Positions 1 to 16,921 of a stretch of 26,854 nt of DNA are shown here, piece by piece; within the stretch, counting starts at the first letter, position 1; every line of letters begins with the position of its first letter. The translations under genes and the position numbers were made by a program. The notes under the pieces are model-generated. The model was not told where the DNA came from, did no database searches, and saw nothing but the letters and a program-made list of their open reading frames with translations. This DNA comes from Candidatus Altimarinota bacterium (GTDB lineage: Bacteria; Patescibacteriota; Gracilibacteria; UBA1369): the NCBI GenBank assembly GCA_041659405.1, contig JBAZYK010000015.1:1-26854 (forward strand), given 5' to 3'.

Positions 1-101
1 ATGCCAGATTAAAAGGATTCAGATTACTGGTTCGTGGGGTGAGTGATGTTGATTTCTTTTTATATCGCATTGTTCAGCTCTATGTCTAGCGATTTAATTT
101 A

Positions 102-173
102 TTCAAACCAAAAAGCGTATGATCCCATATTATACCGCTGCCAATAAGTTCGCATTGCGTGCGAACGTTGTGC
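102..173 (+). repeat. attC-like cassette-boundary repeat A
   Basis: Possible left box TTCAAAC (102-108). Hairpin GTTCGCA (148-154) / TGCGAAC (160-166) is followed directly by GTTGTGC (167-173). The next ORF's ATG lies 4 nt downstream. The right module aligns with repeats B-E. The left boundary is uncertain. Confidence 0.4.
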
Positions 174-176
174 AAC

Positions 177-482
177 ATGGCAAAATCAACTATAATAACA
201 TCTAGTCTTTACAATTTTAATACAATTAATATGTCTAATCCAAATTCACCGAGAGATCTTGATCCAGCTGAAAAATTAGAAGAACTGGGTTTAGCAGTGG
301 GCCCCGATGGCATATTAAGGGGTAATGAAATAACTGGTTTCACAATAGGTTTACCAAATAAAGAAGGTGTTGTTTTAATAAAAGGTCCCGATGGTACTGA
401 ATTCAAGCTTGAAGGTGTAAAAGGGATACAGATTAAAAAAATGAATGTTTCTGGCCGTGGGAAAGTAGGAATAGTCCTTTAA
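177..482 (+). CDS. hypothetical small protein (cassette 1)
   Basis: The ORF track gives 159..482. I prefer the first ATG at 177 because 159 is a GTG inside the repeat hairpin. ATG 231 is also possible. No recognisable family. Confidence 0.45.
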   Translation: MAKSTIITSSLYNFNTINMSNPNSPRDLDPAEKLEELGLAVGPDGILRGNEITGFTIGLPNKEGVVLIKGPDGTEFKLEGVKGIQIKKMNVSGRGKVGIVL

Positions 483-497
483 ACATTTTGCCAAATC

Positions 498-611
498 GCA
501 CAACAGCACCCAAGCGGTTCGCTGCGGCTCACCCAAATTTTTTGTGGCGGTGGTCGCTCCGCTCCAAATTGTACCGCCATAAAAAACTTCAGTTAGGCGC
601 GAACGTTAGCG
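498..611 (+). repeat. attC-like cassette-boundary repeat B
   Basis: Left module GCACAAC-AGCACCCAAGCGGTTCGC starts at 498. A 13-bp stem pairs TTTTTTGTGGCGG (538-550) with CCGCCATAAAAAA (574-586), with one G.T. Right module is GCGCGAAC-GTTAGCG (605-611). A consensus GTTAGGC is also present at 592-598. Confidence 0.5.
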
Positions 612-672
612 GTTCGGTTTCTTTGCCTTATTTTCTATTTTTTGATAAAATACAGGTGCTTAAAATTTTCCT

Positions 673-897
673 ATGAAAACAACACAATTCACCGTTTATA
701 TAGAACAAGATGAAGATGGAATGTTCATCGGCTCCATTCCGACAGTCCCTAGTTGTCACGCAGAAGGAAAAACACAAGTTGAGATGTTAAAAAATCTTGA
801 TGAGGTTTTGGAGTTATGCCTTCGCAATGTGAACAAGAAAGAAATTATGAAAACAAAATTTATTGGCATCCAAAATCTAGAGCTTTCCCATGCCTAA
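673..897 (+). CDS. hicB: HicB-family antitoxin
   Basis: 74 aa. The pattern FTVYIEQDEDGMFIGSIPTVPSCHAEGKTQVEMLKNLDEVLELCL is typical of HicB/UPF0150. Overlaps the downstream hicA by 8 nt (ATGCCTAA). Confidence 0.85.
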   Translation: MKTTQFTVYIEQDEDGMFIGSIPTVPSCHAEGKTQVEMLKNLDEVLELCLRNVNKKEIMKTKFIGIQNLELSHA

Positions 898-1114
898 ACT
901 CATCCCCATCAAACCAAAGAAGCTCATCAAAATACTGATCTTCATTGGTTTCGTCAAAAGAGATGCACAGGGTTCACATGTGTTTTTCGGACATAAAGAT
1001 GGAAGAACAACAGTAGTGCCAATCCATAATCGAGAGCTGAGTAAGGGACTGCTTAGGAAAATTTTAAACGACGTTCAACTATCAATTGAAGAATACGAGA
1101 AATTAAGAAAATAA
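890..1114 (+). CDS. hicA: HicA-family mRNA interferase toxin
   Basis: 74 aa. MPKL..KKLIKIL...GFV..R.QGSHVFF.H.DGRTTVVPIH...LSKGLLRKIL matches the HicA/YcfA pattern, including the GSH motif. Confidence 0.85.
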   Translation: MPKLIPIKPKKLIKILIFIGFVKRDAQGSHVFFGHKDGRTTVVPIHNRELSKGLLRKILNDVQLSIEEYEKLRK

Positions 1115-1118
1115 GGCA

Positions 1119-1203
1119 AGTAAACATCACCCAAATTGACTGGTTATGGCCTTTCGGCACATTATACAACCAGCCAAACTTCGCCAACGCGCGAACGTTA
1201 GGT
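1119..1203 (+). repeat. attC-like cassette-boundary repeat C
   Basis: Left module AGTAAAC-ATCACCCAAATTG. Internal stem CTGGTT (1140-1145) / AACCAG (1168-1173). Right module CGCGCGAAC-GTTAGGT (1197-1203), which fits GTTRRRY. Confidence 0.5.
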
Positions 1204-1237
1204 GAAATTGCAATTTTTTAAATATTTATCATTAATT

Positions 1238-1612
1238 ATGAAAAAAATAAAAATTCCTTTGTTTGTAGCAATAACATCGGCAATTGTTTTTTTGCTTGAA
1301 ATGTTTTCTTTTTCTATCGGCAGAGTTATCTATAAAATTTTTCCTTGTAGACAAGATCCGATGAACTCATTTCCATGTTTTGGTATTTATGACATATACG
1401 CTGGCTTTATAAAATACGCTGTCTGGAAAGAAGGGAAATACTACGTTTCTCAATGTCTCAACGTAGATGTTTCCAGTTTTGGGAAAACCAAAAAAGAGGC
1501 TTTGAAAAATTTGGAGGAAGCTTTAGAGCTTTATTTTGAAGAGTCAAAAGCCCCAAAAGTAACAAAGATCATGGATGTTCACATTGTTTCTGGATCTTTA
1601 AAGTATGCCTAA
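1238..1612 (+). CDS. HicB-like domain protein with an unrelated hydrophobic N-terminal segment
   Basis: The C-terminal part YAVWKEGKYYVSQCLNVDVSSFGKTKKEALKNLEEALELYFEE is HicB-like. The N-terminal ~40 aa (MKKIKIPLFVAITSAIVFLLEMF..) looks like a TM or signal segment. ATG 1238 is preferred over GTG 1202. The HicB-like part alone could start at ATG 1361. Confidence 0.55.
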   Translation: MKKIKIPLFVAITSAIVFLLEMFSFSIGRVIYKIFPCRQDPMNSFPCFGIYDIYAGFIKYAVWKEGKYYVSQCLNVDVSSFGKTKKEALKNLEEALELYFEESKAPKVTKIMDVHIVSGSLKYA

Positions 1613-1758
1613 ATTACATTCATCAAAAGAAATTATTAAAGTCCTTGAACAAAAAGGCTTTGTTTTTGTTTCTCAAAAAGGAAATACCGGAAGGGACTTT
1701 CAGGTCAATCCTAAGGCAATCGAACACAACTGAAGAAGATTTCAAAAAGAAAAAATAA
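1605..1758 (+). pseudogene. hicA remnant with internal deletion and frameshift
   Basis: It has the same ATGCCTAA overlap with the upstream gene as the intact pair. Frame 1 reads MPKLHSSKEIIKVLEQKGFVFVSQKG, then diverges and stops at 1731-1733. Another frame continues IPEGTFRSILRQSNTTEEDFKKKK* (stop 1756-1758). The GSH..H catalytic core is missing. The locus is 154 nt against 225 nt for the intact hicA, and the 71-nt difference is not a multiple of 3. Confidence 0.6.
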
Positions 1759-1800
1759 GTCAAATTGCAAAAAACTTCGGTTCGCGCGCAAACGTTGTGC
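1759..1800 (+). repeat. attC-like cassette-boundary repeat D (short, left part truncated)
   Basis: CAAATTGCAAAAAACTTCGGTTCGCGCGCAAAC-GTTGTGC (1794-1800). The right module aligns with A, B, C and E. The near-palindrome GTTCGCGCGCAAAC is present. Confidence 0.45.
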
Positions 1801-1848
1801 GACATATTTTGTGCTAATATAGGCTCACATATTTTTTAAATTTTTATT

Positions 1849-2211
1849 ATGAAAAAAACCATAATATTAACAGTACTCATTAATCTTATGATCACAGGAA
1901 CAGCCTTGGCACTTGTCCAAATAAAACAGTTCTCTGATGTTGAAAAAGGAAGTTTTTATTCTACAGCAGTTGATAACATGGTTTATCAAGGCGTTGTTAA
2001 AGGATACGATGACGGATTATTTCATCCAAATGACGGTGTGAATCGTGCCCAAGCCGTAACAATGCTAGATAGATATGATCAAAATTTAAAAGATACAGAG
2101 ATTAAATATTTAAAAACAATGGTATGCACAGGATTTAATGAAAATACAGGTTCATATCCTGACTATAAAGCAGCATACCAAAAATTATGCATGCCTTTAG
2201 TAGCTAACTAA
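1849..2211 (+). CDS. secreted SLH (S-layer homology) domain protein
   Basis: N-terminal signal-like MKKTIILTVLINLMITGTALA. FSDVEKGSFYSTAVDNMVYQGVVKGYDDGLFHPNDGVNRAQAVTMLDRY matches the SLH motif pattern. Confidence 0.7.
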   Translation: MKKTIILTVLINLMITGTALALVQIKQFSDVEKGSFYSTAVDNMVYQGVVKGYDDGLFHPNDGVNRAQAVTMLDRYDQNLKDTEIKYLKTMVCTGFNENTGSYPDYKAAYQKLCMPLVAN

Positions 2212-2217
2212 CAATAC

Positions 2218-2256
2218 GCCTAACAGCGCCCAACCGGTTCGCCGCAAACATTATGT
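2218..2256 (+). repeat. attC-like cassette-boundary repeat E (minimal)
   Basis: GCCTAAC (2218-2224, fits RYYYAAC)-AGCGCCCAACCGGTTCGCCGCAAAC-ATTATGT. The GTT of the right box is degenerate (ATT). Central palindrome AACCGGTT. Confidence 0.45.
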
Positions 2257-2269
2257 GACATTTATTTTT

Positions 2270-2509
2270 ATGCTTGATATCTTCATTGAAGTAATAGAAA
2301 GGTTTGGAATCGCAGGATATTTCCTCGCAATTTCCTTATTTATATATGCAATAATATTAATTATTGCATTCCCATTAGCCCTAGGAATGTTAATTTATTC
2401 TTTAATTTTCAAAAACTGGAAAATTTGGCGAAATTGGAAATATGTAGGTTATGCTGCATTGGTAGGATTAATCATTAGAATAATAGGAATATATTTGTTA
2501 AAAGCATAA
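2270..2509 (+). CDS. small membrane protein (2-3 TM), hypothetical
   Basis: Hydrophobic segments GIAGYFLAISLFIYAIILIIAFPLALGMLIYSLIF and YVGYAALVGLIIRIIGIYLL. ATG 2270 is preferred over GTG 2255, which lies inside repeat E. Confidence 0.5.
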   Translation: MLDIFIEVIERFGIAGYFLAISLFIYAIILIIAFPLALGMLIYSLIFKNWKIWRNWKYVGYAALVGLIIRIIGIYLLKA

Positions 2510-2510
2510 A

Positions 2511-2540
2511 AATAAACAGCGCCCAACCGACATTAAAACA
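2511..2540 (+). repeat. attC-like cassette-boundary repeat F (deleted form of E)
   Basis: AATAAAC-AGCGCCCAACCG-ACATTAAAAC. The 12-mer AGCGCCCAACCG is identical to repeat E. The middle GTTCGCCGCAA is absent. Confidence 0.4.
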
Positions 2541-2579
2541 TCTAAAAGATGCTGTTTTGCTTTACATGGAAGTCGAGAA

Positions 2580-3788
2580 TTAACTTGGTTGCAAACACTT
2601 TGTAGATATTTTAGTTGAAGTATATGGCCCACCAACATTCCCGCGATCACGCCAGGTATCTGTAGTCTCCAGGATATAATCTTCAACGCCGAAAGTATTT
2701 TGATAAAACTTTTTACAGTATGTGAGTTTATCCAAGTCTGCTCCGGAAACTCCATCGGAATCAGTAAGCCAATTCCCGTTTGCGTCAGTATGTTGATTTA
2801 CTTTTCCCCACCAGTACATAATACGAGGATTAGTACCTGGTGCTGTGTATTGCGTCGCCGCAACTGTCATAATATTGCCGGCAAAAAGTTGGCCCGATCC
2901 GTTATTCACCATTAATTCACCTGAAACATTAAACTGTAAAGATCCGCCATAAACACCATAGACCGTCGAACCAATAAGAGCTGAAGGACTAACATCAGCA
3001 ACAACCCTCAAAACCAGTGTTTGGTTGGCTATAAGCTGTATATTGACATAAGGAAAGTTCATGCCGGCGGTGGTAACATTTTGAGTCGTGCCGAGTTGTA
3101 CACCAGTCACATCGTCGTAGAGGCGTAAAGTGGAAATATTCTGGTAGCCGTTTGGCATTGGTAATAGCGAAACAGCGAAGCTATTTAAGGTACCGTCGCA
3201 ATTCGGAGTTGCGTTGAATTTCGTTAGAGTAACCCCGCTTTGACCGGGACTTATGTTTTGCGCCGCAGGAGTTGTTGGAGCAACGGAGACCGAGAACAAG
3301 CATGACGGAGTCGTAGGAACGCTTGGCATGCTCGTGACGGTGAAATATTGACCAAGGCTCATCTTGCCATAAGCGTTCACCACTTTAATTTGAATTTTGC
3401 ACGATCCGGGCTTTATTTTAGCTAAGCTCGCCGAACAATCCGCCTTAACTTTGTCGGAAATGAGATTAACATTAAAAGTAAGTGTCTTCCCGTCAGGCGA
3501 AAGAATGGGTTGGTCTAAAACTTCACTTTGAATTAAAATATAGTTGCCTGGGGCGTACACCTTTCCGTTTATTTGAGTACCGGTGATTCCTTGAATTGAC
3601 GATGAAAATCCGGAACCCGATATAACAACTTCCGTTCCGGTAGCACCCTGGTTTGGTGAAATTGAACTGATTTTCACCATGCTTTCCGCTTTTGGTATAG
3701 CACCCTGGAATAATATTATTCCAGCGATAGCAACCGTACTAAACATCGAGGCGATTTGAACTTTTTTATTTTTCAATAATTTTTTCAT
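2580..3788 (-). CDS. secreted or cell-surface protein with N-terminal IPT/TIG-like beta domain
   Basis: 402 aa. Signal or TM segment MKKLLKNKKVQIASMFSTVAIAGIILF. ISSISPNQGATGTEVVISGSGF resembles IPT/TIG openings. The rest is beta-rich and Ser/Thr/Gly/Asn-rich. It is the only minus-strand gene inside the repeat-bounded region. Confidence 0.65.
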   Translation of the reverse strand: MKKLLKNKKVQIASMFSTVAIAGIILFQGAIPKAESMVKISSISPNQGATGTEVVISGSGFSSSIQGITGTQINGKVYAPGNYILIQSEVLDQPILSPDGKTLTFNVNLISDKVKADCSASLAKIKPGSCKIQIKVVNAYGKMSLGQYFTVTSMPSVPTTPSCLFSVSVAPTTPAAQNISPGQSGVTLTKFNATPNCDGTLNSFAVSLLPMPNGYQNISTLRLYDDVTGVQLGTTQNVTTAGMNFPYVNIQLIANQTLVLRVVADVSPSALIGSTVYGVYGGSLQFNVSGELMVNNGSGQLFAGNIMTVAATQYTAPGTNPRIMYWWGKVNQHTDANGNWLTDSDGVSGADLDKLTYCKKFYQNTFGVEDYILETTDTWRDRGNVGGPYTSTKISTKCLQPS

Positions 3789-3860
3789 ATTTTTATTTTA
3801 ATGATTTATAATGGAATCGTGACTATGAATATTGTACCACAATTAGGCAATTGTTGCAAA

Positions 3861-3896
3861 CTTAACAAAGAGCGCCCACCCAATTCGGCCGCAGCC
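3861..3896 (+). repeat. attC-like repeat G (left module only; last copy seen)
   Basis: CTTAAC..AGCGCCCACCCAATTCGGCCGCAGCC aligns with AGCGCCCAACCGGTTCGCCGCA of repeat E. The right ACGTT/GTT module is absent. Confidence 0.4.
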
Positions 3897-3916
3897 TCCC
3901 CCATTTTTTTTTGCAT

Positions 3917-4426
3917 ATGAAAAGACCAAAGCTGGTAAGGATTGATTTGGACAAGCCAATTACAGAGCTTGTTAGTCAAAGTGACCACAAAATATTAGGA
4001 ATCTGGGCAGCTGACTGTGCCGAGCGGGTCTTACACTACTTTGAAGAAAAATATCCGGAAGATAATCGTCCCCGAAAAGCTATAGAAGCACTCCGGACGT
4101 GGATTAAGACCGGCCTGTTTAAAATGGCCGATGTGCGAAAGAGTTCACTTTCGGCTCATGCGGCAGCCCGTGAAGTGAAAGAAAATGATGATGCCGCCCG
4201 ATCCGCCGCCCGCAGTGCAGGACAAGCAATGGCGACTGCGCATGTTCCCACTCATTCCATTGGCGCTGCTGTTTATGCAGCCACCGCCGTCCGCGACGCA
4301 ACCGGCTCCATTGATGACACTACCAGGGAACGAGATTGGCAATACCAGCACTTGCTCAATCTGAACAAAACATTTGGCACAACCCATCCCGCAAAGAAAA
4401 CGCTCTGGAGGTTCCGGCAAAAATAA
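3917..4426 (+). CDS. hypothetical protein, Ala-rich helical (possibly immunity-protein-like)
   Basis: ATG 3917 is preferred over TTG 3911. It is visibly more GC-rich than its neighbours. WAADCAERVLHYFE...AARSAARSAGQAMATAHVPTHSIGAAVYAATAV recalls Imm5-like putative immunity proteins, but this is from memory only. Confidence 0.55.
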   Translation: MKRPKLVRIDLDKPITELVSQSDHKILGIWAADCAERVLHYFEEKYPEDNRPRKAIEALRTWIKTGLFKMADVRKSSLSAHAAAREVKENDDAARSAARSAGQAMATAHVPTHSIGAAVYAATAVRDATGSIDDTTRERDWQYQHLLNLNKTFGTTHPAKKTLWRFRQK

Positions 4427-4430
4427 AGTA

Positions 4431-5105
4431 TTAAAGCTCAAACGAAGGTTCCACAATTTCCACTTTGTCGCCAATCAGTTTAAACTTATTGGACAGATGT
4501 GGATGCGCGTGAATCGACAGAATTTTCCAGGGAACAAGTTGGTCCGCAGCTATTCCGGTCTTGCCCAAATCAGCTTTTTTGGGCAAAAATATCAGGTTTT
4601 CTTCATCCAGTACCCTAATGATAACCATCGTGTAATCAGTTTCAAATTTGACGGAAACAATGCGGCCGCCAAGCGAAACAGTTTTATTGAGTGCGAATTT
4701 ACTTTCCGGTTCAAATTTTTCGTCCGGCACATGCTTGATATCCTTTAGATCAGCCAAAGAAAGGCTGCCACCGAATTTCCAAGCGCCAGCTTCGTTGTTA
4801 AAACGAAGCATTAATTCCTGAGTGGAATTTTTTTTATCTTCAGTCTTCAGCGCTCCGGTTATATAAAGCAGTGCCTTTTCACCTTTTTGATCCAGGTGCG
4901 AAACGGTAAAGGAAACGGGAATCATCATTGGTGCCATTTGTAAGATACTCGCCTTCCCTTCCGGAGTTTTGAACATCTCCAGAAAAGATTTTTTGCTTTG
5001 TATATCTACAAATTGCATGGCTTTATCAACATCACCGGCCAAAATTGCCTGATTAAAATCATCGAAAATTTTCTTCAATTCCTCCATTGTTGCAGGTGCA
5101 TTCAT
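4431..5105 (-). CDS. hypothetical protein
   Basis: 224-aa ORF with a clean ATG. It converges on the preceding gene with a 4-nt gap. No family recognised. Confidence 0.6.
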   Translation of the reverse strand: MNAPATMEELKKIFDDFNQAILAGDVDKAMQFVDIQSKKSFLEMFKTPEGKASILQMAPMMIPVSFTVSHLDQKGEKALLYITGALKTEDKKNSTQELMLRFNNEAGAWKFGGSLSLADLKDIKHVPDEKFEPESKFALNKTVSLGGRIVSVKFETDYTMVIIRVLDEENLIFLPKKADLGKTGIAADQLVPWKILSIHAHPHLSNKFKLIGDKVEIVEPSFEL

Positions 5106-7585: not shown

Positions 7586-8143
7586 ATGACTTTCTTAAAA
7601 CTGCTAGATCGACTTTTCTTCGGACCAAAAGTAACCGAGGATAAAAGCAAATTCCTCAGCGGAAAAGATATAAAAGCAAAATTCGCCCCACCAACGGAAG
7701 AAATCGGCAAAGAACTAAAAACAATCATCGCTAACCTATATGGCGGGCGATCTTTACGAATCCGCGCAGTAGATGGTGGTTCAAGTAATGGCGAAGAAAT
7801 CGAATTAACCGCTCTTGGCAATGCTTATTACGACATTGACCGCTTTGGACTTTCTTTTGTGGCATCTCCAAGACACGCCGACATGCTTTTTGTAACCGGA
7901 CCTGTCACCAGAAACCTGGAACGGGCCGTGCGCACCACTTACGAAGCCGCACCGCAGCCATGCATCGTTGTAGCCCTGGGTGATGGCGCCTGCACCGGCG
8001 GCATTTGGAAAAATTCCTATGCCGTGGTTGGCCCTGTCGAAAAAGTCATTCCCGTTCATTACAAAATCTATGGAGACCCACCAACTCCAACTCAAATTTT
8101 AAGCGGCCTTTTAAATATCTTAAAAAACAAAACTCAAAAATGA
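7586..8143 (+). CDS. NuoB/HycG-like hydrogenase small-subunit homolog lacking Fe-S ligands
   Basis: DRFGLSFVASPRHADMLFVTGPVTRNLERAV...VVALGDGACTGGIW...GDPPTP aligns with the HycG/NuoB family. The expected Cys positions read AVDGGSSNGEE, GDGACTGG and YGDPP, so only one Cys is retained. Confidence 0.85.
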   Translation: MTFLKLLDRLFFGPKVTEDKSKFLSGKDIKAKFAPPTEEIGKELKTIIANLYGGRSLRIRAVDGGSSNGEEIELTALGNAYYDIDRFGLSFVASPRHADMLFVTGPVTRNLERAVRTTYEAAPQPCIVVALGDGACTGGIWKNSYAVVGPVEKVIPVHYKIYGDPPTPTQILSGLLNILKNKTQK

Positions 8144-10152
8144 ATAATGAAGTTTTAATCACAACCGGTATTTTGGTGAGCCTGATCGGAACATTCGCAG
8201 GTGGAATTATTTCCTTATTTGGAAAAAACAATTTCATCCAGAGAACCGCGCAAATAGTTACAGCACTTGCACTTTTGCTTGGAACGGCTTCCTCGGGCGC
8301 TTTTTTAATGATGAACCTTCAACCGCTAACAATCTTTAATCTTGGAACTTTATTTCCCGGACAGTTTGTAATCGATCACCTTTCGGCAATCTTTTTTTTG
8401 CTTGTTAATGCAGTTGGATTTTTGGCGACAATCTACGGCACAAGATACGTTTTGAACGAAGCGCACCTTTATAATATTTCTTACGTCCAGTTTCTAACGT
8501 CATTTTTCCTTTTGGGAATGCAAATGGTTGTGCTTTCCACCAATGCCGTTTCCTTTCTTTTTTCCTGGGAAGTAATGTCACTCAGCAGCTTTTTATTGGT
8601 AATAGCCGACTTTAAACACTCTTCCATTAGAGCGGCAATTTTTTATTTGATCATGACTCATCTTGGAGCAGGAGCGCTTTTAGCCGGATTTCTTTTACTT
8701 TCCGGCGGTTCGTTAAGCCTTAACTTCAGCCAAATTGCTCAACTGGTTCCACAAATGTCTTCAATCACCGCCATCAGCGCATTTCTATTATTTTTCTTTG
8801 GATTTGGATCTAAATCGGGACTTTTCCCTTTTCATGGCTGGTTACCGGAAGCGCATCCACAAGCCCCAAGTCACATTTCAGCTTTAATGTCTGGAATTAT
8901 GCTAAAGATTGCCGTTTATGGATTTTTGCGGGTTATACTTTTCATGCTGCCGGTTATGCCAATCGAAATCGGCATGACAGTTACCGTAATCGGCTTATTT
9001 TCCGCAGTTTTTGGAGTTCTTTACGCTACAATTGAAACGGACATAAAACGAATTTTGGCTTTCAGCAGCATTGAAAACCTTGGTCTGATTTTTACGATGA
9101 TCGGAATTTATCTGATCGCCAAAAATTTACAAATGGATCTCCTGGCTCAAATCAGCCTTATAGTAATCTTGTTCCAGTCGATCTGCCACGCTTTTTTCAA
9201 GTCAGGTTTATTCATGAGCGCCGGCGTAATCGCCCAAACTTTCCACACCCGCAACATTGAAAAAATGGGCGGCATGGCCAAAAACATGAAACTGTTCTCT
9301 TTCGCGGTTTTGCTGCTTGCCTTAACCGCTGCGGCGTTACCACCTTCCGGTGCCTTCATTGGTGAATGGATTATTTTACAAACAATTATTGGAACCCTGG
9401 CTATTGCACCTTTAGGCTTTAAAATTATTTTGTTACTGACCTTTGTTGTGTTTGGTTTTGTTGCAGGAATGGCCGTTTTTGCCATGGTCAGATTTTTTGG
9501 AATCGCCTTTTTAGCAAAATCAAGAACAACCAACGCCCACGTTGAAGCCAATTTAAAACATGACCCGCAGGCGGAACTGCTTATACCAATCGTCATTTTG
9601 GCCTTTGTAGTTTTTGGACTGGGGTCGATTGCCCAGTTTATTACAAAAATAATCGGCAATGGCATTCTTACCGAATCTTATCAAAAAACATTTGATACAA
9701 GCTTCAACCTCTTTGGCACATCTTTCAATCCTTCAATGCTGTTGGTAATTATCGTCGCGGCAATTTTGGCGGCTTACCTCTTCCGCTATTTCACCTCAAA
9801 TCGCAAAAACGAACGCCAATATCACAGTTGGGATTGCGGCCAACCGATTGATGCTTCCATGGAATATACCGGCACAGCATTTGCTTCACCTCTGCGCTTT
9901 TTCTTTAACATGATCCTTCGCACAAATAAAAAAGTGGAATCTAAACCTGTGCTAGCCAGCAATCCCTGGATTACCAAAAAAAGCATCAGTATCGAAACTT
10001 ATCCAATTTGGGATCAATATTTTTATGAACCAATCGTCAAGCTGGTAGCTTTCATTTCGGCTAAAATCCGCAAACTTCAAAGCGGAATTATCCAGTTCTA
10101 CATCGCGTTAATTCTTATTACTCTCGTCATAACCGCAATCGCCACTCTATGA
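8140..10152 (+). CDS. HyfB/HycC/NuoL-like antiporter-type membrane subunit
   Basis: Start moved to ATG 8140 (ATGA overlap with the upstream stop) instead of 8005. Motifs FSWEVMSLSSF and FHGWLPEAHPQAPSHISALMSGIMLKIAVYG are typical of NuoL/M/N-type subunits. 670 aa, many TM. Confidence 0.85.
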   Translation: MNNEVLITTGILVSLIGTFAGGIISLFGKNNFIQRTAQIVTALALLLGTASSGAFLMMNLQPLTIFNLGTLFPGQFVIDHLSAIFFLLVNAVGFLATIYGTRYVLNEAHLYNISYVQFLTSFFLLGMQMVVLSTNAVSFLFSWEVMSLSSFLLVIADFKHSSIRAAIFYLIMTHLGAGALLAGFLLLSGGSLSLNFSQIAQLVPQMSSITAISAFLLFFFGFGSKSGLFPFHGWLPEAHPQAPSHISALMSGIMLKIAVYGFLRVILFMLPVMPIEIGMTVTVIGLFSAVFGVLYATIETDIKRILAFSSIENLGLIFTMIGIYLIAKNLQMDLLAQISLIVILFQSICHAFFKSGLFMSAGVIAQTFHTRNIEKMGGMAKNMKLFSFAVLLLALTAAALPPSGAFIGEWIILQTIIGTLAIAPLGFKIILLLTFVVFGFVAGMAVFAMVRFFGIAFLAKSRTTNAHVEANLKHDPQAELLIPIVILAFVVFGLGSIAQFITKIIGNGILTESYQKTFDTSFNLFGTSFNPSMLLVIIVAAILAAYLFRYFTSNRKNERQYHSWDCGQPIDASMEYTGTAFASPLRFFFNMILRTNKKVESKPVLASNPWITKKSISIETYPIWDQYFYEPIVKLVAFISAKIRKLQSGIIQFYIALILITLVITAIATL

Positions 10153-11096
10153 ATCTTCTCGTCATTTTTTATCAATTTTTGATCGTTGCTTTAGTCGCTC
10201 CTTTTGCAGCGGGACTGGTTAAATTTTTTAAAGCCAGACTCCAGGGACGCCGCGGCGCATCGCCATTTTTGCCTTACTTCACAATCCTGACTCTGCTCAA
10301 AAAACAAATGGTTATTTCGGAAAGTACCTCCTGGGTTTTCCGCATTTCTCCATTCATCGTTTTTGGAACATCTTTATTCATGGCACTGGTTTTACCTTTA
10401 ATGACAGCCAATCTCGCCCTGGTAACCTTCAGCAATTTCATCATCGTTGCCGGAATTTTAATTCTTGGCGCGATTTTTCTGGTTTTTGGCGGACTCGAAT
10501 CTGCTTCCGCCTTTGGTGGAATGGGAGCAAGCCGTGAAATGACCATCACTGCTTTAATCGAACCAACGGTTTTGCTGATTTTTGGGACTCTGGCACTCAA
10601 CAGCGGAAGCACGGAAATAAGCAACATGGTGCTTCATCTCGATTTCCTTAAAAATCCTTTTATCATCCCCACAATCCTAGCTTTAGCATTGGTCGCCCTT
10701 GCCGAAAACGCCCGCTATCCGGTGGATAATCCGGCTACACATTTGGAACTTACAATGGTTCACGAAGCCATGGTTTTGGAATATTCCGGTCCATATTTGG
10801 CGTTACTTGAATATGCTTCATTTCTTAAACTGACCTTCTTTTCGTTACTGGTCGCAAATTTCATCTGGCCAATCGGCTTAATTACAGGCTCAATCACAAA
10901 CAACTTTGCTTTATCTCTTGTCATTGCTCCACTCATCCTGCTGGCAAAAATAATTGTGATGATGTTTTTATTGGCACTTTTAGAATCCACAATCGTCAAA
11001 ATGCGTTTTTATCGCATTCAGGAATATGCAACTGTAGCCTTTTTCCTGGCTCTTGGCGGAATTATTTTGACTCTTGTTAATATCACCATCCTATGA
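10149..11096 (+). CDS. HycD/HyfC/NuoH-like membrane subunit
   Basis: 315 aa, polytopic. LQGRRGASPFLPYFTILTLLKK, GGMGASREMTI, and ENARYPVDNPATHLELTMVHEAMVLEYSG (compare the NuoH/HycD P.D..E.E.EL..G motif). ATGA overlap with the upstream gene. Confidence 0.85.
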   Translation: MNLLVIFYQFLIVALVAPFAAGLVKFFKARLQGRRGASPFLPYFTILTLLKKQMVISESTSWVFRISPFIVFGTSLFMALVLPLMTANLALVTFSNFIIVAGILILGAIFLVFGGLESASAFGGMGASREMTITALIEPTVLLIFGTLALNSGSTEISNMVLHLDFLKNPFIIPTILALALVALAENARYPVDNPATHLELTMVHEAMVLEYSGPYLALLEYASFLKLTFFSLLVANFIWPIGLITGSITNNFALSLVIAPLILLAKIIVMMFLLALLESTIVKMRFYRIQEYATVAFFLALGGIILTLVNITIL

Positions 11097-11773
11097 TCTC
11101 GACCCAACTTCTTGCCGATTTTTTTGCAGGCGGACTATTACTTGCCACTTTCATGATGATCGGCAAAATCCGCTTACTGCAGATGCTCCGCTATTTTGCG
11201 ATTGCCTCCTTTTTTCTGGCTGCTCTTGGCGGAATTATCGCCTTTTCACGCGGAGAACCGGAACTGTATATCGGCTCGATCGCCACAATTCTTTTCAAGG
11301 TAATTTTTATTCCCGCCTTCATTTCTTATACAGCCAAAAAAATCCCGTCTTCCTACCAGTTAAAAATGTATATAAAACCCGCTACCACCTATTTTCTTTT
11401 CGCACTGATTTTAATTATAAGTGCGATCATTGTCAGAAATTTACCTTTAACTTTTAGCAGCAGTGACGGCATTTTCCAGGATGTGTTTTTCTTCAGAAGC
11501 CTGCTTTTTATTTCCGTTGCGCTGATTTTATCGGGATTTTTACTCATCATCATCAGAAAAGATTTATTTTCACAGGTACTTGGTTTAATGACAATCGAAA
11601 ACGGTATCGCCGCTTTTGGGCTTGTAGCCTTAAACAACGTACCCCTATTCCTGGAAATGGGCGTCTTTTTTGTGATTATGGTTAGCACGATTATCCTGGC
11701 TCTCCTCACGGAAAAAGTCCACGAAGTGTACTCAAGCGGAGACACCGAAAATTTAAATGAATTAATTGACTGA
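11093..11773 (+). CDS. HyfE-like (NuoK-related) membrane subunit
   Basis: 226 aa. The C-terminal part LGLMTIENGIAAFGLVALNNVPLFLEMGVFFVIMVSTIIL matches the NuoK/HyfE pattern with two membrane Glu. Overlaps the upstream stop. Confidence 0.75.
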   Translation: MISTQLLADFFAGGLLLATFMMIGKIRLLQMLRYFAIASFFLAALGGIIAFSRGEPELYIGSIATILFKVIFIPAFISYTAKKIPSSYQLKMYIKPATTYFLFALILIISAIIVRNLPLTFSSSDGIFQDVFFFRSLLFISVALILSGFLLIIIRKDLFSQVLGLMTIENGIAAFGLVALNNVPLFLEMGVFFVIMVSTIILALLTEKVHEVYSSGDTENLNELID

Positions 11774-11780
11774 TCACACT

Positions 11781-13262
11781 ATGCCTATCCTAATTTTCGT
11801 CATCTTCACGTTAACTGCCATCTGTGCTTTTATCCCAAAGCAGGCTAAAAATGTTTTCAACCTGGTTTTGGGCATGGGCATTGTCTCTTCCGCAGTGGCT
11901 TTTTACACAATGATTCCCCCGCTATTTTCAAATCAAATTTTGGAACTGGGAGGAATGTTAAGAATCGATAAATTTTCCGCGCTGATTGGAGTTTTGATTA
12001 CAACTCTCTACTTTTTTGCGGTTTTAATCAGCCATCGCTACATTTCGGAAGAGTATCGCGAGGGAATTTTGAATTTATTTAAAGTGCGCCTTTATTATTT
12101 GCTGCTGCCATTATTTGCCCTAGCCATGTTAACCGTAATCATGGCCGACAACCTGGGATTATTGTGGCTGGCTCTGGAAACAACCACTTTAGTTACAACT
12201 CCATTGGTCGCAATTTACAAAAAAGACGGCTCGCTGGAGGCAGCTTGGAAATACATGATTTTATGTTCCCTTGGAATCAGTCTGGGACTTTTAGGAGTGC
12301 TTCTACTAAGCTACGCAGGCGTACAAAGTGGTCTTAGCGGCCTGGATTCAATGTCGATTAAAATGTTGATCACCAATGCTCCAAAAATGATTCCGGAAGT
12401 TATGAAATGGGCTTTTATTTTCTGTTTCATTGGACTTGGAACCAAAGTCGGCTTTTTCCCTTTACACACCTGGCTTCCGGACGCTCACGGCAGAACTCCG
12501 GCTCCTATTTCGGCAATGCTCTCCGGAATTCTTTTAAACGTCGCCCTTTACGCTTTATTAAGAGTTAAAGGAATCACCGATATCGCTTTAGGATCTGATC
12601 AATGGACCAATAATTTATTTTTGATTTTTGGGGTGATGTCCATAGTTGCCAGCGCCTTTTTTCTTTTCATCCAACGCAATTACAAAAGAATGTTGGCTTA
12701 TTCCAGCATGGAACACATGGGCTTAATTGCTGTAGCCATCGGCCTTGGCCCGCTTGGACTTGTTCCGGCCACCATGCACATGGTTGCCCACACACTTTCC
12801 AAATCATTACTTTTCTTTGGCTCCGGCGAAATTTTATTACACACCAAAACCGCCAAAATCTACAAAATAAAAAGCCTGATCAACCAATTACCAAAAACGG
12901 TTATTTTGTTTACCATCGGCATGATTTCCCTGCTGGCCTTCCCTCCATTTGCGACTTTTTCCAGCGAAGTAATGATTCTATCCGCGGCCATCACCAAAGG
13001 ACAAATCATCCCTTTCTTTTTGATCATAATTTCTTTGAGTATTATTTGTATCAGCTTTTTTAAACACGCTTTTGACATGTTTTCCCACAGTGAAGATCAA
13101 ACGGAAGACAGCGCTAAAATCGCTCAAGCAAAAGAAAAGTTCAATGTGACTCATCTGGTAATGATTATCCAAATTGTTCTTTTGATAGCGGGCGGAATTT
13201 TTATGTTTACCAATACCGGATTCGATTTCTTCTCAAGTATCGCTGACTCTATTTATCACTAA
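11781..13262 (+). CDS. HyfF/HyfD/NuoN(M)-like antiporter-type membrane subunit
   Basis: LALETTTLVTTPLVAIY and FPLHTWLPDAHGRTPAPISAMLSGILLNVALYA are typical. ATG 11781 chosen. TTG 11766 (8-nt overlap with the upstream gene) is an alternative start. Confidence 0.85.
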   Translation: MPILIFVIFTLTAICAFIPKQAKNVFNLVLGMGIVSSAVAFYTMIPPLFSNQILELGGMLRIDKFSALIGVLITTLYFFAVLISHRYISEEYREGILNLFKVRLYYLLLPLFALAMLTVIMADNLGLLWLALETTTLVTTPLVAIYKKDGSLEAAWKYMILCSLGISLGLLGVLLLSYAGVQSGLSGLDSMSIKMLITNAPKMIPEVMKWAFIFCFIGLGTKVGFFPLHTWLPDAHGRTPAPISAMLSGILLNVALYALLRVKGITDIALGSDQWTNNLFLIFGVMSIVASAFFLFIQRNYKRMLAYSSMEHMGLIAVAIGLGPLGLVPATMHMVAHTLSKSLLFFGSGEILLHTKTAKIYKIKSLINQLPKTVILFTIGMISLLAFPPFATFSSEVMILSAAITKGQIIPFFLIIISLSIICISFFKHAFDMFSHSEDQTEDSAKIAQAKEKFNVTHLVMIIQIVLLIAGGIFMFTNTGFDFFSSIADSIYH

Positions 13263-13276
13263 TTTTTGGCCGCACC

Positions 13277-14908
13277 ATGGAAAAGAAAACTACAATCAGC
13301 AAAGAAAACACGCAGCGACAAGCCACAAATCAGACTTCAAACCTTGAGGTCATCAAGACCGACGCCGAACATTTTAATAACATTGTTTTCAACCTTTTGG
13401 AAAAAAATTATCGTCTTGCGCACATGTTTGCCACTGACGATATCGCTTCAAACAAAACTTTTGGAGTGCACGTTTTGCTCACACCGGAAGCCAAAAACGA
13501 ATGGATTCAAGTTTCAATTGCCTTGCCGGAAAAAAATCCCAAATACGAATCTCTGACCAAAACTTTGCCTTCCACCAACTGGTACGAAAGATACATCATG
13601 GATATGTTTGGAATTGTTGCGGAAGGTCATCCCGACCACAGAAGGCTTGTTCATCACGAAAACATGCCACTCAATACTCATCCGTTACGCAAAGATTTTG
13701 CCTGGAACACGGTTTTGAAAAAAGAAAATCATCCTCATCCAATGCATCACGTTGAGGGAAATGGCATTTATGAAATTCCGGTTGGACCGATTCACGCCGG
13801 CATTATTGAACCGGGACATTTTCGTTTTAATGTAGCCGGAGAAAGAATTATCACGCTGGAAGGAAAATTATTTTTCACCCACAAGGGCGCGGAAAAAATC
13901 ATGGAAGGGAAAAAACTTGAAGAAGCTTTACCTTTTGTTGAAAGAATTTCCACAGATTCAGCCGCAGGGCATGCATTAGCCTACTGTCAGACAGTTGAAA
14001 AAATTACCAACACCAAAATAAGTGAAAAAGCCACACTTTTAAGAACTTTGATTGCCGAATTGGAGCGCATCACCATGCACATTCATGACCTTGCAAACAT
14101 TGCCGGCATGGGAACAGGTTACAGCGTAATGGCTGCACATGGCTTTAGAATCAAAGAAAAGCTGGTTCGTTTAAGTGAAGAACTTTTTGGTAATCGTTTT
14201 TGGCGAGGATTTATTGTACCGGGCGGAGTCGACAAAGATCTGGAAAAATCAGAACTAAAACTTATTTCCGAAACGACAAAAGAGGTTGTGGAAGAAATGC
14301 AGGATCTGCTTAAAATGGGCCTTAATTCAGATGGTTTATGCGAAAGACTTGTTAGTAGTGGCGTCTTAAAACCAGAAGCGGCCAAGGCTTATGGCGCAGT
14401 TGGAATTGCCGCCAGAGCTTCGGGGATCAACATGGACACCCGCGTTGATCACCCTTATGCAGCTTATCCAAAGCTTAATTTCACAGTTGCCGTAAAACAG
14501 GGTAATGGCGTTTTTGCCCGTTACATGGTCCGCGTTGAAGAATTGGAAGCAAGTTACGCAATGGTTCAGGAACTTCTTAAATTCTTGGGACAATCAAAAG
14601 AAGTTAAAGGAAAAGCTCACGTCAAAAGTGAAATCAATTTCATAGCTGCACAAAGCGCAAACAAAGCAAATCAAAAAAACGCAGCCGCTTCGGCAAACGA
14701 AGCCATTTCCGCAGTAGAAGGCTGGCGCGGCGAAATCATTTATTTCATCCGTTTGGACGAAAAAGGCCTGATTGATCGCATTTCCGTCCGTGATCCATCA
14801 TTCTGCAACTGGCCACTTTTTGGAGAAATCGGCCCAGGCAACATCGTCCCAGACTTCCCTCTTTGCAACAAATCGCTCGACCTAAGTTATTCCGGAACGG
14901 ATTTGTAA
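13277..14908 (+). CDS. HycE/HyfG-like fused NuoC-NuoD homolog (hydrogenase large-subunit-like) lacking NiFe ligands
   Basis: The N-terminal NuoC-like part includes WYERYIMDMFGIVAEGHPD. The large-subunit part includes EIPVGPIHAGIIEPGHFRF and VEGWRGE. The N-terminal metal motif reads ERISTDSAAGH (Ser codons 13949-51 and 13958-60 where R.CG.C..H has Cys). The C-terminal motif reads DLSYSGTDL (Ser 14885-87 and Gly 14894-96 where DPC..C has Cys). Confidence 0.85.
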   Translation: MEKKTTISKENTQRQATNQTSNLEVIKTDAEHFNNIVFNLLEKNYRLAHMFATDDIASNKTFGVHVLLTPEAKNEWIQVSIALPEKNPKYESLTKTLPSTNWYERYIMDMFGIVAEGHPDHRRLVHHENMPLNTHPLRKDFAWNTVLKKENHPHPMHHVEGNGIYEIPVGPIHAGIIEPGHFRFNVAGERIITLEGKLFFTHKGAEKIMEGKKLEEALPFVERISTDSAAGHALAYCQTVEKITNTKISEKATLLRTLIAELERITMHIHDLANIAGMGTGYSVMAAHGFRIKEKLVRLSEELFGNRFWRGFIVPGGVDKDLEKSELKLISETTKEVVEEMQDLLKMGLNSDGLCERLVSSGVLKPEAAKAYGAVGIAARASGINMDTRVDHPYAAYPKLNFTVAVKQGNGVFARYMVRVEELEASYAMVQELLKFLGQSKEVKGKAHVKSEINFIAAQSANKANQKNAAASANEAISAVEGWRGEIIYFIRLDEKGLIDRISVRDPSFCNWPLFGEIGPGNIVPDFPLCNKSLDLSYSGTDL

Positions 14909-16851: not shown

Positions 16852-16921
16852 TGGTGGAGATAAGGGGAATCGAACCCCTCGTGATTGGATTGGTAATTCC
16901 ATCACGGCACCTGCTATCCCC
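16852..16921 (-). ncRNA. non-canonical tRNA-like element (acceptor stem + T-arm + encoded CCA, no D-arm)
   Basis: The minus strand reads GGGGATA-GCAGGTGCC-GTGATGGAATTACCAATCCAATCAC-G-AGGGG-TTCGATT-CCCCT-TATCTCC-A-CCA. It has a 7-bp acceptor stem with G3.U70 and a canonical T-arm. Only 35 nt lie between the acceptor and the T-stem, and no 5-bp/7-nt anticodon arm can be drawn. The acceptor helix extends to 10 bp and is stacked on a further 7-bp helix (16843-49 / 16928-34). Confidence 0.4.

Follow-up and report, generated by a model that had tools for sequence, protein, structure and literature searches.

A probable, largely fossilised integron-type cassette array in a Gracilibacteria/Peregrinibacteria-type bacterium and its family of attC-like sites

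Sedentary chromosomal integrons and clusters of attC sites lacking integron-integrases (CALINs), in the definitions of IntegronFinder, are one-directional arrays of short, mostly single-gene cassettes whose attC sites carry RYYYAAC (R'') and GTTRRRY (R') boxes. In this study, we compare with them the first 4,426 nt of a DNA stretch from a Candidatus Altimarinota bacterium (contig JBAZYK010000015.1; the whole stretch of 26,854 nt is called the window), in which small open reading frames (ORFs) alternate with attC-like repeats. This region is likely to be what remains, mostly as a fossil, of the distal part of an integron-type cassette array on the chromosome of a bacterium of the candidate phyla radiation (CPR), of the Gracilibacteria/Peregrinibacteria type. 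Together with its relatives, it resembles chromosomal integrons and CALINs in the features just named, and also in a structure conserved above sequence, in exchange at G/TT as read from a circular-cassette signature, in sites that are homogeneous within a lineage, in a cargo of toxin-antitoxin, immunity and defence genes and, in the relatives, in a divergent recombinase with an attI-like site. The additional domain by which integron integrases (IntI) are defined, the I2 helix around patch III, is held to permit recombination of folded single-stranded attC DNA and to block a lethal second strand exchange (PMC7790495; PMC9668308). According to a proposal of Escudero and colleagues, the domain originated in an ancestor resembling Xer that single-stranded elements exploited (PMC7790495). 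Archaeal integrons, whose IntIs are reported to keep this IntI-specific additional domain (Ghaly et al., 2022; PMC9668308), are like the CPR arrays in that cassette arrays were found in a deep lineage known only from metagenome-assembled genomes (MAGs) and were recognised by the folding of their attC sites and the structure of the arrays; the CPR array-adjacent recombinases differ in being without the domain. In the rAID-1 clusters of Bacteroidales (Ross et al., bioRxiv 10.1101/471110), small genes, among them orphan immunity genes, form long arrays next to a Xer-family tyrosine recombinase without IntI features, and the repetitive sequences between these genes were said to recall integrons. 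Integrative mobile elements exploiting Xer (IMEX), such as the CTX phage with XerCD at dif, employ an I2-less Xer-type enzyme, which acts on single-stranded DNA folded into a hairpin in imitation of a duplex site, and tandem arrays of them are possible (PMC7790495). No report of integrons or attC sites in CPR, Patescibacteria or the named CPR phyla was found in the literature, of which our coverage was incomplete, so that this is absence of evidence only.

The preliminary description of the window, made from its sequence, had proposed seven related attC-like repeats bounding an array of cassettes. This interpretation is supported by a family of related sites, by their R boxes and covarying stems, by a cassette signature and by the sharing of cassettes between arrays. 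A search of public metagenomes with the left-module pattern of the repeats (AGCRCCCAASCG) gave 10 loci, and a search of species-representative genomes with the right-module pattern (GCGCGAACGTT) gave 16 MAG loci. The MAGs among these 26 loci are mostly Ca. Peribacteria, Peregrinibacteria and Gracilibacteria; the remainder are single Magasanikbacteria, Uhrbacteria, Saccharibacteria and Patescibacteria-group genomes and two bins labelled Gammaproteobacteria. The right-module pattern had no match in viral contigs, and a viral origin was rejected for this reason. With a covariance model built from the family itself, 89 sites were found in 146 kb, in one orientation per locus in all 26 loci (median site length 117 nt, range 63-192 nt; median spacing 549 nt). 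The sites begin with RYYYAAC, a single A and an 11-nt arm, followed by GGTTCGCYGCGGCTCACCCAAATTTG and a variable hairpin with an unpaired ATTATAC, and they close with AACTTCG, the complementary 11-nt arm, GGAC or GAAC, and GTTRRRY. A structural rule derived from this architecture (AAC-N-11 nt, then 11 nt complementary at 9 or more of 11 positions, NNNN and GTT) recovers 51 sites in the loci compared with 1.2 in shuffled loci. AAC and GTT are invariant in all 46 aligned sites. In the same alignment the L stem is 94.5% paired, a percentage inflated by construction because the sites used for the covariation counts were picked by L-arm pairing, and both sides vary in 10 of the 11 pairs (for example GCGCCTAACCG/CGGTTAGGCGC, GCGTGTATGCG/CGCATACACGC and CAGAATATGCG/CGCATATTCTG). 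The conserved flanking motifs lie outside this selection and show the family to be real. When folded as DNA, the bottom strands of intact sites form an R box, a small loop, an L stem, an asymmetric loop and a terminal stem, with z values of -3.4 to -6.7.

The family sites behave as integron cassette sites, with a circular-permutation signature and sharing between arrays. The four variable bases of R'' are fully complementary to those of the preceding R' in 37 of 59 neighbouring pairs, and the complementarity frequently reaches 15-25 nt. The corresponding counts are 8/80 for a site's own R', 1/38 for the site two positions before, and 3.4 for random pairing (maximum 11 in 10,000 trials). Circular cassettes opened at G/TT would leave such a pattern. 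Each unit holds one co-oriented ORF, and of 55 cassettes 53 have their longest ORF in the direction of the array; the cargo of one long array (L011) includes EamA, HAD, Mrr and AbiEii-like ATPase proteins, among others. Two loci (L027 and L028) have a cassette in common that is 84% identical over 482 nt, with homology from R' onward, behind different attC sites. Cassettes are likewise shared between L025 and L029 and between L022 and L025, and L034 and L043 part at an attI-like site. In these relatives, homology ends at the point of recombination; the order at the window locus itself is the same in two other samples (L002 and L003).

The same evidence bears on the explanation that the repeats are non-mobile and merely punctuate small genes, as repetitive extragenic palindromes (REPs) or bacterial interspersed mosaic elements (BIMEs), miniature inverted-repeat transposable elements (MITEs) or transcription terminators would. 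The sites are indeed GC-rich imperfect palindromes behind stop codons, and two terminator-like matches overlap copies 2 and 4 of the window. However, terminator-like sites are as frequent as expected in window 1-4500 (5 versus 4.8), and for lack of enrichment there a terminator or promoter explanation was rejected. Orientation is strictly uniform, complementarity of R'' to the preceding R' and homology breaks at the level of cassettes are unexpected for REPs or terminators, and the 22 kb of housekeeping genes that make up the rest of the window carry no copy: beyond position 3900, only weak, chance-level matches to the motifs, the profile or the covariance model were obtained. Thus, a scattering of the repeat among ordinary genes, which the preliminary description had named as a refutation, is not seen within the window, and non-mobile repeats are a scarcely credible explanation.

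The CPR family is a variant of the integron kind: the logic of its sites matches, the strict demand for an IntI domain fails, and the stem geometry differs. Classical attC sites have unpaired spacers of about 5 and 5 nt; here, an 11-bp L stem runs from 1 nt after R'' to 4 nt before R'. A classical geometry (R'', 5 nt, L'') fitted by eye to copies 2 and 3 of the window failed, and the family alignment gave the different geometry described above. Further differences from classical integrons are the conserved unpaired ATTATAC bulge, the recombinase without I2 and the CPR host, as well as the decayed state of the window copy. An IntI with an I2 domain next to the array, as a complete integron has, was found neither in the window nor in its relatives. 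The R'' and R' boxes are present throughout the family, the R and L stems fold in the intact relatives and not in the window copies, and the complementarity of R'' to the preceding R' is seen across the family and, in the window, for cassette A.

A history that would account for these features starts with circular cassettes, each consisting of one ORF and an imperfect-palindrome site of about 105-130 nt. In single-stranded form the site would fold into an R box (xxxxAAC/GTTxxxx), a 1 x 4-nt internal loop and the 11-bp L stem, beyond which come an asymmetric loop and a variable terminal hairpin where the conserved ATTATAC stays unpaired, and a tyrosine recombinase would insert each cassette by strand exchange at G/TT. 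Later internal deletions may have stripped one or both arms from most sites of the window and fused or shortened genes such as hicA and hicB. Because such deletions remove the arms, the window copy is probably no longer recombinogenic. Single-strand folding in vivo, the exact crossover point, catalysis by a recombinase of about 270 amino acids (aa) found in the relatives and the inactivity of the window copy are what we infer from these comparisons.

The seven stretches named in the preliminary description are present at the coordinates it gave, are intergenic and lie on the plus strand (Table 1). Its right module is present in copies 1-5 as claimed (at 159, 597, 1189 and 1786, and weakly at 2242). 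The left module, which it had assigned to all seven, is found in copies 2, 5 and 6 (at 505, 2225 and 2518) and, with two mismatches, in copy 7 (at 3871). Its left-module call in copy 3 (CACCCAAATT) aligns to the inner conserved motif of the family, and the one in copy 4 (CGGTTCG) belongs to the right arm. Copy 2 is composed of R'' GCACAAC (498-504), an L'' arm (506-516), an L' arm (590-600), GAAC (601-604) and R' GTTAGCG (605-611). Its two L arms represent two different variants of the sequence, with only 7 of the 11 positions paired, and the DNA fold forms neither the R nor the L stem (z -0.7 for the bottom and -1.5 for the top strand). Copy 3 has lost about 26 nt with the L'' arm, as judged against L011:5015-5122; the inner hairpin and the right module are intact, and the hairpin is all that folds (z -2.9). 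Copy 1 has the right module with one mismatch, forms a local 7-bp hairpin (z -1.6) and is absent from the covariance-model matches, and copy 4 is 78% identical to it across 40 nt. In copy 5, R'' GCCTAAC, the L'' arm and GGTTCGCC are joined straight to GCAAAC/ATTATGT, with the centre and the L' arm deleted, and there is no fold (z -0.1). Several R boxes of the window deviate from the RYYYAAC/GTTRRRY consensus by one base. Thus, membership in the family speaks for the attC sites implied by the preliminary description; as working sites they find little support, the window array being mostly decayed, with no copy that keeps both R and L pairing.

This decay speaks against the literal model of the preliminary description, in which the window would be the distal end of a classical integron that is still active: attI and a canonical IntI with I2 would lie just left of the contig, and all seven attC sites would work. 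The orientation of the array and the boundaries of cassette A fit such a reading, and the contig ends at the array, a frequent outcome where arrays are rich in repeats. However, apart from the lost arms and pairing, the array-proximal recombinases of the relatives all lack the IntI-specific region, and tblastn detected no I2-bearing recombinase among the fetched loci. An active classical integron is therefore very unlikely. The absence of an integrase from the window, as stated in the preliminary description, was confirmed: no tyrosine recombinase is encoded in it. The source contig k141_248155 (ENA assembly ERZ27249449) consists of the window plus 14 nt at either end; because the contig begins 14 nt left of the window, upstream DNA cannot be read and no integrase is visible there.

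In the relatives, a recombinase accompanies the arrays. At one end of the 14.8-kb locus L011, a tyrosine recombinase of 270-289 aa is encoded divergently from at least 14 cassettes, and homologues of 45-54% identity occupy the same divergent position in L016, L019, L023 and L025. A second set of loci was fetched around members of this recombinase family that had been picked by protein similarity alone. In three of its five evaluable loci, attC matches lie directly upstream of the divergent gene and nowhere else in about 20 kb (Parcubacteria L034/L035 with four sites, L041 with one and L042 with two); a further protein-picked locus, L033, is cut off. Two conserved sites lie upstream of the recombinase genes: AAGTTCGYATAATATGCAA and, some 45 nt further on, TTCGYATARAAACGAG/TT. 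The latter, attI-like site lies 40-190 nt from the divergent gene (948 nt in L016); TTCG-N11-GTT is exact in 6 of 11 loci, with related sites legible in most others. According to complementarity with the R'' extension of the first attC, the first cassette begins at G/TT of the attI-like site. In L034 and L043, the recombinase and the attI-like site are 83% identical, and homology ends right after ACGAG/TTA. A comparison of cassettes adds an observation on rank: the first cassette behind the attI-like site of L033 (1-241) opens with nearly the same ~50 nt (containing AATAATAATACATTCTTTCCGCCACT) as L011:2649-2700. The latter cassette follows the first detected attC of its array, and thus the same type of cassette occurs at a different rank.

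The recombinase has the catalytic R...HxxR...H...Y motifs and finds its best sequence match in the PDB in VchIntIA (2a3v). The match falls into two blocks (12-177 to 13-181 and 199-270 to 246-317), leaving 21 aa in the I2 region versus 64 in VchIntIA, and the enzyme is collinear with XerA. The NCBIfam integron-integrase model TIGR02249 matches in two stretches with 196-226 bits, below its cutoff of 265. The score for XerA is 179-242 bits; both exceed those for XerC (164-189) and XerD (144-188). An AlphaFold2 model (pLDDT 86.5) has no helix in the I2 region, and Foldseek places XerA and VchIntIA first, with about 46 additional columns in the alignment to VchIntIA. A separate recombinase of 345 aa in L020 was considered as a true IntI and rejected as XerD-type by its profile scores (250 bits for XerD versus 132 for the IntI model). 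With a separate XerD-type gene at that locus, the ~270-aa enzyme need not be a housekeeping Xer.

These properties also bear on an IMEX-like stacking, in which the conserved site would be the chromosomal dif and hairpin elements, like CTX, would exploit a single housekeeping Xer and pile up in tandem. Collinearity with XerA would suit such a mechanism, and so would the site adjoining the recombinase gene, as in some single-Xer systems; in XerS/difSL, the site lies beside the recombinase gene. The action of Xer on folded single-stranded CTX DNA provides a precedent (PMC7790495). The separate XerD-type enzyme of L020 and the higher score of the ~270-aa enzyme with the IntI profile than with XerC or XerD do not suit it. 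A dif site of 28 bp has two inverted 11-bp arms, lies at the replication terminus and is acted on by the housekeeping Xer; by inspection the attI-like site is no 11-6-11 palindrome. IMEX are, moreover, whole phages or islands that use the housekeeping XerCD and dif, whereas the CPR units are one-gene cassettes whose attI-like site is not palindromic and whose recombinase looks dedicated and is more similar to the profile of IntI. We regard IMEX-like stacking as quite unlikely. The likeness to rAID-1, which is one of description, lies in a Xer-type recombinase with integron-like repeats and in the immunity gene, the window array ending in an Imm5_like gene. In rAID-1, the genes lie downstream of the recombinase and in its direction, whereas the CPR arrays lie upstream and divergent; R''/R' boxes or a cassette signature are not reported for rAID-1, and phylum and recombinase clade are others.

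Several results weigh against an integron-type array of this kind. In the window, copies 4, 6 and 7 were neither found by the covariance model nor significant in the profile search (nhmmer, with a profile from the 89 related sites). None of the seven copies passes the structural rule of at least 9/11 L-arm pairs, and their folds (z -0.1 to -2.9) include none with R and L stems, so that of the folding check proposed in the preliminary description the intact relatives pass and the window copies do not. Since no site passes the rule and the full-length copy 2 does not form the R and L stems, activity of the window array is unsupported. The cassette order is identical in L002 and L003 (98.5% and 100% identity), and therefore no mobility is seen at the window locus; the array is probably an immobile fossil that is stably inherited. 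The selection of sites by arm pairing, mentioned above, belongs here as well. On the side of the enzyme, attC sites were not detected at two of the five protein-picked loci (L032 and L043), and the ~270-aa family has more than 7000 matches around 55% identity in several phyla. Its adjacency to the arrays suggests that the lineage has this enzyme as its integrase in place of a canonical IntI, and we would put equal weight on either answer; a canonical IntI may be encoded elsewhere in the genomes of the relatives, which are known here as fragments.

The findings on the enzyme would favour an orphan array of the CALIN type, in which a canonical IntI elsewhere or in donors moved the cassettes and the ~270-aa recombinase is unrelated, or a housekeeping Xer flanking an insertion hotspot. 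A CALIN calls for two or more attC sites within 4 kb and no integrase in reach; copies 2 and 3 of the window attain E < 1e-5 with the family covariance model at a distance of 600 nt and the window encodes no recombinase, but the DNA upstream is missing from the contig. The size of the recombinase family, its occurrence beyond array loci, its ambiguous NCBI name ('site-specific tyrosine recombinase/integron integrase') and the two loci without detectable attC sites are in line with this explanation. Against it, divergent linkage next to attI recurs in five attC-picked loci and in three of the five protein-picked ones, which come from different CPR classes. In addition, the first cassette junction falls on the conserved site upstream of the recombinase, and L020 has its distinct XerD-type gene. 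On balance, an orphan array of this kind appears unlikely. The preferred reading of the window, a largely fossilised integron-type array, is compatible with a wider system. The chances seem even that the window array is part of a CPR-wide integron system, with a naturally I2-less IntI/XerA-like integrase of ~270 aa that builds arrays of folded-hairpin attC cassettes at its own attI.

If true, such a system would either be a present-day equivalent of the ancestor without I2 that has been proposed for integrons or have arrived at single-strand cassette recombination on its own; by analogy, it could represent that pre-I2 state. If the ~270-aa enzyme catalyses the reaction, a defined attI, attC and enzyme would permit direct tests of whether I2 is required and of how integrons originated. 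Surveys of the IntegronFinder type, which need the C-terminal signature of IntI, would in that case score such systems as integrase-less or miss them, and CPR bacteria with their tiny genomes would own a dedicated platform for gene capture with toxin-antitoxin, immunity and defence cargo. The window led to cassette arrays in Peribacteria, Peregrinibacteria, Gracilibacteria and Parcubacteria whose resident recombinase is without I2. Its own contribution is more modest: it would be a fossil array that documents decay through deletions removing attC arms and fusing neighbouring cassettes.

Table 1. Repeats, cassettes and genes of the array region, in window coordinates.
Feature	Position	Strand	Description
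Preceding ORF tail	1-89	+	stop TAG 87-89; runs off contig start; called at L001:2-103; presumed end of preceding cassette
attC remnant 1	102-173	+	right third only; 126-172 = profile 67-110, E 5.5e-4; R' GTTGTGC 167-173
attC 2	498-611	+	sole full-length copy; nhmmer 499-609, E 5e-21; covariance model 59.7 bits, E 5e-14
attC remnant 3	1121-1203	+	nhmmer 1127-1202 = profile 36-110, E 3e-15; covariance model 30.3 bits; R' GTTAGGT 1197-1203
attC remnant 4	1759-1800	+	right end only (AAAAAACTTCGGTTCGCGCGCAAAC followed by GTTGTGC); R' 1794-1800; right module with 1 mismatch
attC remnant 5	2218-2256	+	nhmmer 2219-2243 = profile 2-26, E 1.8e-3; covariance model 16.6 bits with 71-position deletion
attC left fragment 6	2511-2540	+	left module exact at 2518-2529; 15-mer AACAGCGCCCAACCG common to copy 5; not significant alone
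attC left fragment 7	3861-3896	+	weak (AGCGCCCACCCAATTCGGCCGC); 2 mismatches in 12 versus left module; not significant alone
Cassette A	168-604	+	ORF 177-482, 101 aa, no Pfam match; sole cleanly bounded cassette
Cassette B	606-1196	+	hicB 673-897 (PF21748/PF15919), hicA 890-1114 (PF07927, E 7.5e-15); toxin-antitoxin pair
Cassette C	1204-1757	+	decayed; ORF 1238-1612 (124 aa) and hicA remnant 1605-1733 (42 aa)
Cassette D	1801-2217	+	SLH-domain protein 1849-2211, 120 aa; PF00395, E 3e-11
Cassette E	2257-2540	+	small membrane protein 2270-2509, then attC left fragment 6
Inverted surface protein	2580-3788	-	402 aa, signal peptide, weak TIG match; between copies 6 and 7
Imm5_like immunity-type gene	3917-4426	+	PF21805, E 7e-43; last array unit or distal flank

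The array region consists of small plus-strand ORFs and a single minus-strand one, with short GC-richer spacers between them. The gene contents given in the preliminary description were correct (HicB/HicA, a HicB-like fusion with a truncated HicA, an SLH protein, a transmembrane protein and a minus-strand TIG protein), and the Imm5_like gene is added here. Its account of the ORF geometry holds in most cases: plus-strand ORFs stop 2-26 nt short of the following repeat and start 4, 35, 49 and 14 nt past R', and hicB, which starts 62 nt past R', falls outside the range it had given. In cassette A, R'' of copy 2 matches R' of copy 1 at 4/4 variable positions and the match extends over ~20 nt, 167-187 (GTTGTGCAACATGGCAAAATC) being close to the reverse complement of 483-505, which ends in R'' GCACAAC; the other junctions of the window are degraded. 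The order of hicB and hicA in cassette B is the same in the two other samples. The long ORF of cassette C joins an unrelated transmembrane N-terminus to a HicB-like domain (PF24113/PF21748 at residues 60-109 only). The hicA remnant behind it has an internal deletion and a frameshift (PF07927 at residues 7-27 only), and the HicA C-terminus IPEGTFRSILRQ...EEDFKKKK is legible in a different frame. An alternative genetic code was considered for this decayed hicA and rejected: the code is standard, with long ORFs intact under code 11 and TGA used as stop in 2/17 genes.

In L002 (2040-2678, with flanks 98.5% identical), the inverted surface protein is reduced to its last ~95 residues and the remainder is swapped for unrelated sequence, which marks it as a modular or hypervariable surface protein within the array. 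A homologue of the Imm5_like protein in L010 is 59% identical, and its gene, too, comes right after the truncated left part of an attC where an array ends distally. The fragments before the two genes (window 3861-3916 and, as reverse complement, L010 6960-7000) differ in sequence. The presence of this gene in both is a weak signal of cassette sharing for the window array. The 224-aa gene that flanks the array has a distant relative (45% identity; L038-L040) near which there is no attC; from this it follows only that the array has no great age at the window locus. Contigs of the same locus from other samples are shorter and begin within copy 2. Independent short-read assemblies (L002, L003 and L037) break within copy 2 (532-541) and within the Imm5_like gene (3917-4426), and contig ends thus cluster at array elements.

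Two minor observations concern the family sites. The top strand of attC contains a sigma70-like TTGnCn-16/18-nATTAT directed into the next cassette in 28 of 81 family sites (L006-L031) compared with 3.4 ± 1.9 after shuffling; the window example is TTGACT-18-CATTAT at 1136-1165. It could be a promoter embedded in attC or just reflect the conserved unpaired ATTATAC bulge. In L019 (3500-4090), the arms of one attC lie ~480 nt apart. The insert is edged by 21-nt inverted repeats (beginning GAAGGAAATCGGGTTTGGTT) and holds a 92-aa ORF on the opposite strand; it is an inserted element or an unusually large variable region.

The other 22 kb of the window are ordinary chromosome with a group-4 hydrogenase/Mrp-like operon, a U32 peptidase, DsbB/DsbA, Ldh, QueC/QueF and tRNA-Ser. 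Judged by its proteins, the host is a CPR bacterium of the Gracilibacteria/Peregrinibacteria type, as the preliminary description had considered: one neighbouring protein is identical to a deposit labelled Candidatus Gracilibacteria bacterium (locus tag WC843), and the named Ldh homologues belong to Altimarinota, Gracilibacteria and Patescibacteria. A scan of the whole window with Rfam gave no family match in the array region and elsewhere only tRNA-Ser and a sub-threshold tmRNA-like match. The latter, on the minus strand at 16852-16921, is a tRNA-like fragment that comprises the T arm, the 3' side of the acceptor and CCA and is flanked by a 569-aa gene and a DUF218 gene; the tmRNA model scores 31 bits against a gathering score of 47, and ARAGORN makes no call there. 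The hydrogenase operon (7586-14908) looks complete for a group-4 [NiFe]-hydrogenase/Mrp-antiporter-like system in a CPR genome and encodes Oxidored_q6, two Proton_antipo_M, NADHdh and a fused 30-kDa/49-kDa subunit. A 77-nt repeat within it (8779 and 12411) merely reflects the two paralogous antiporter genes.

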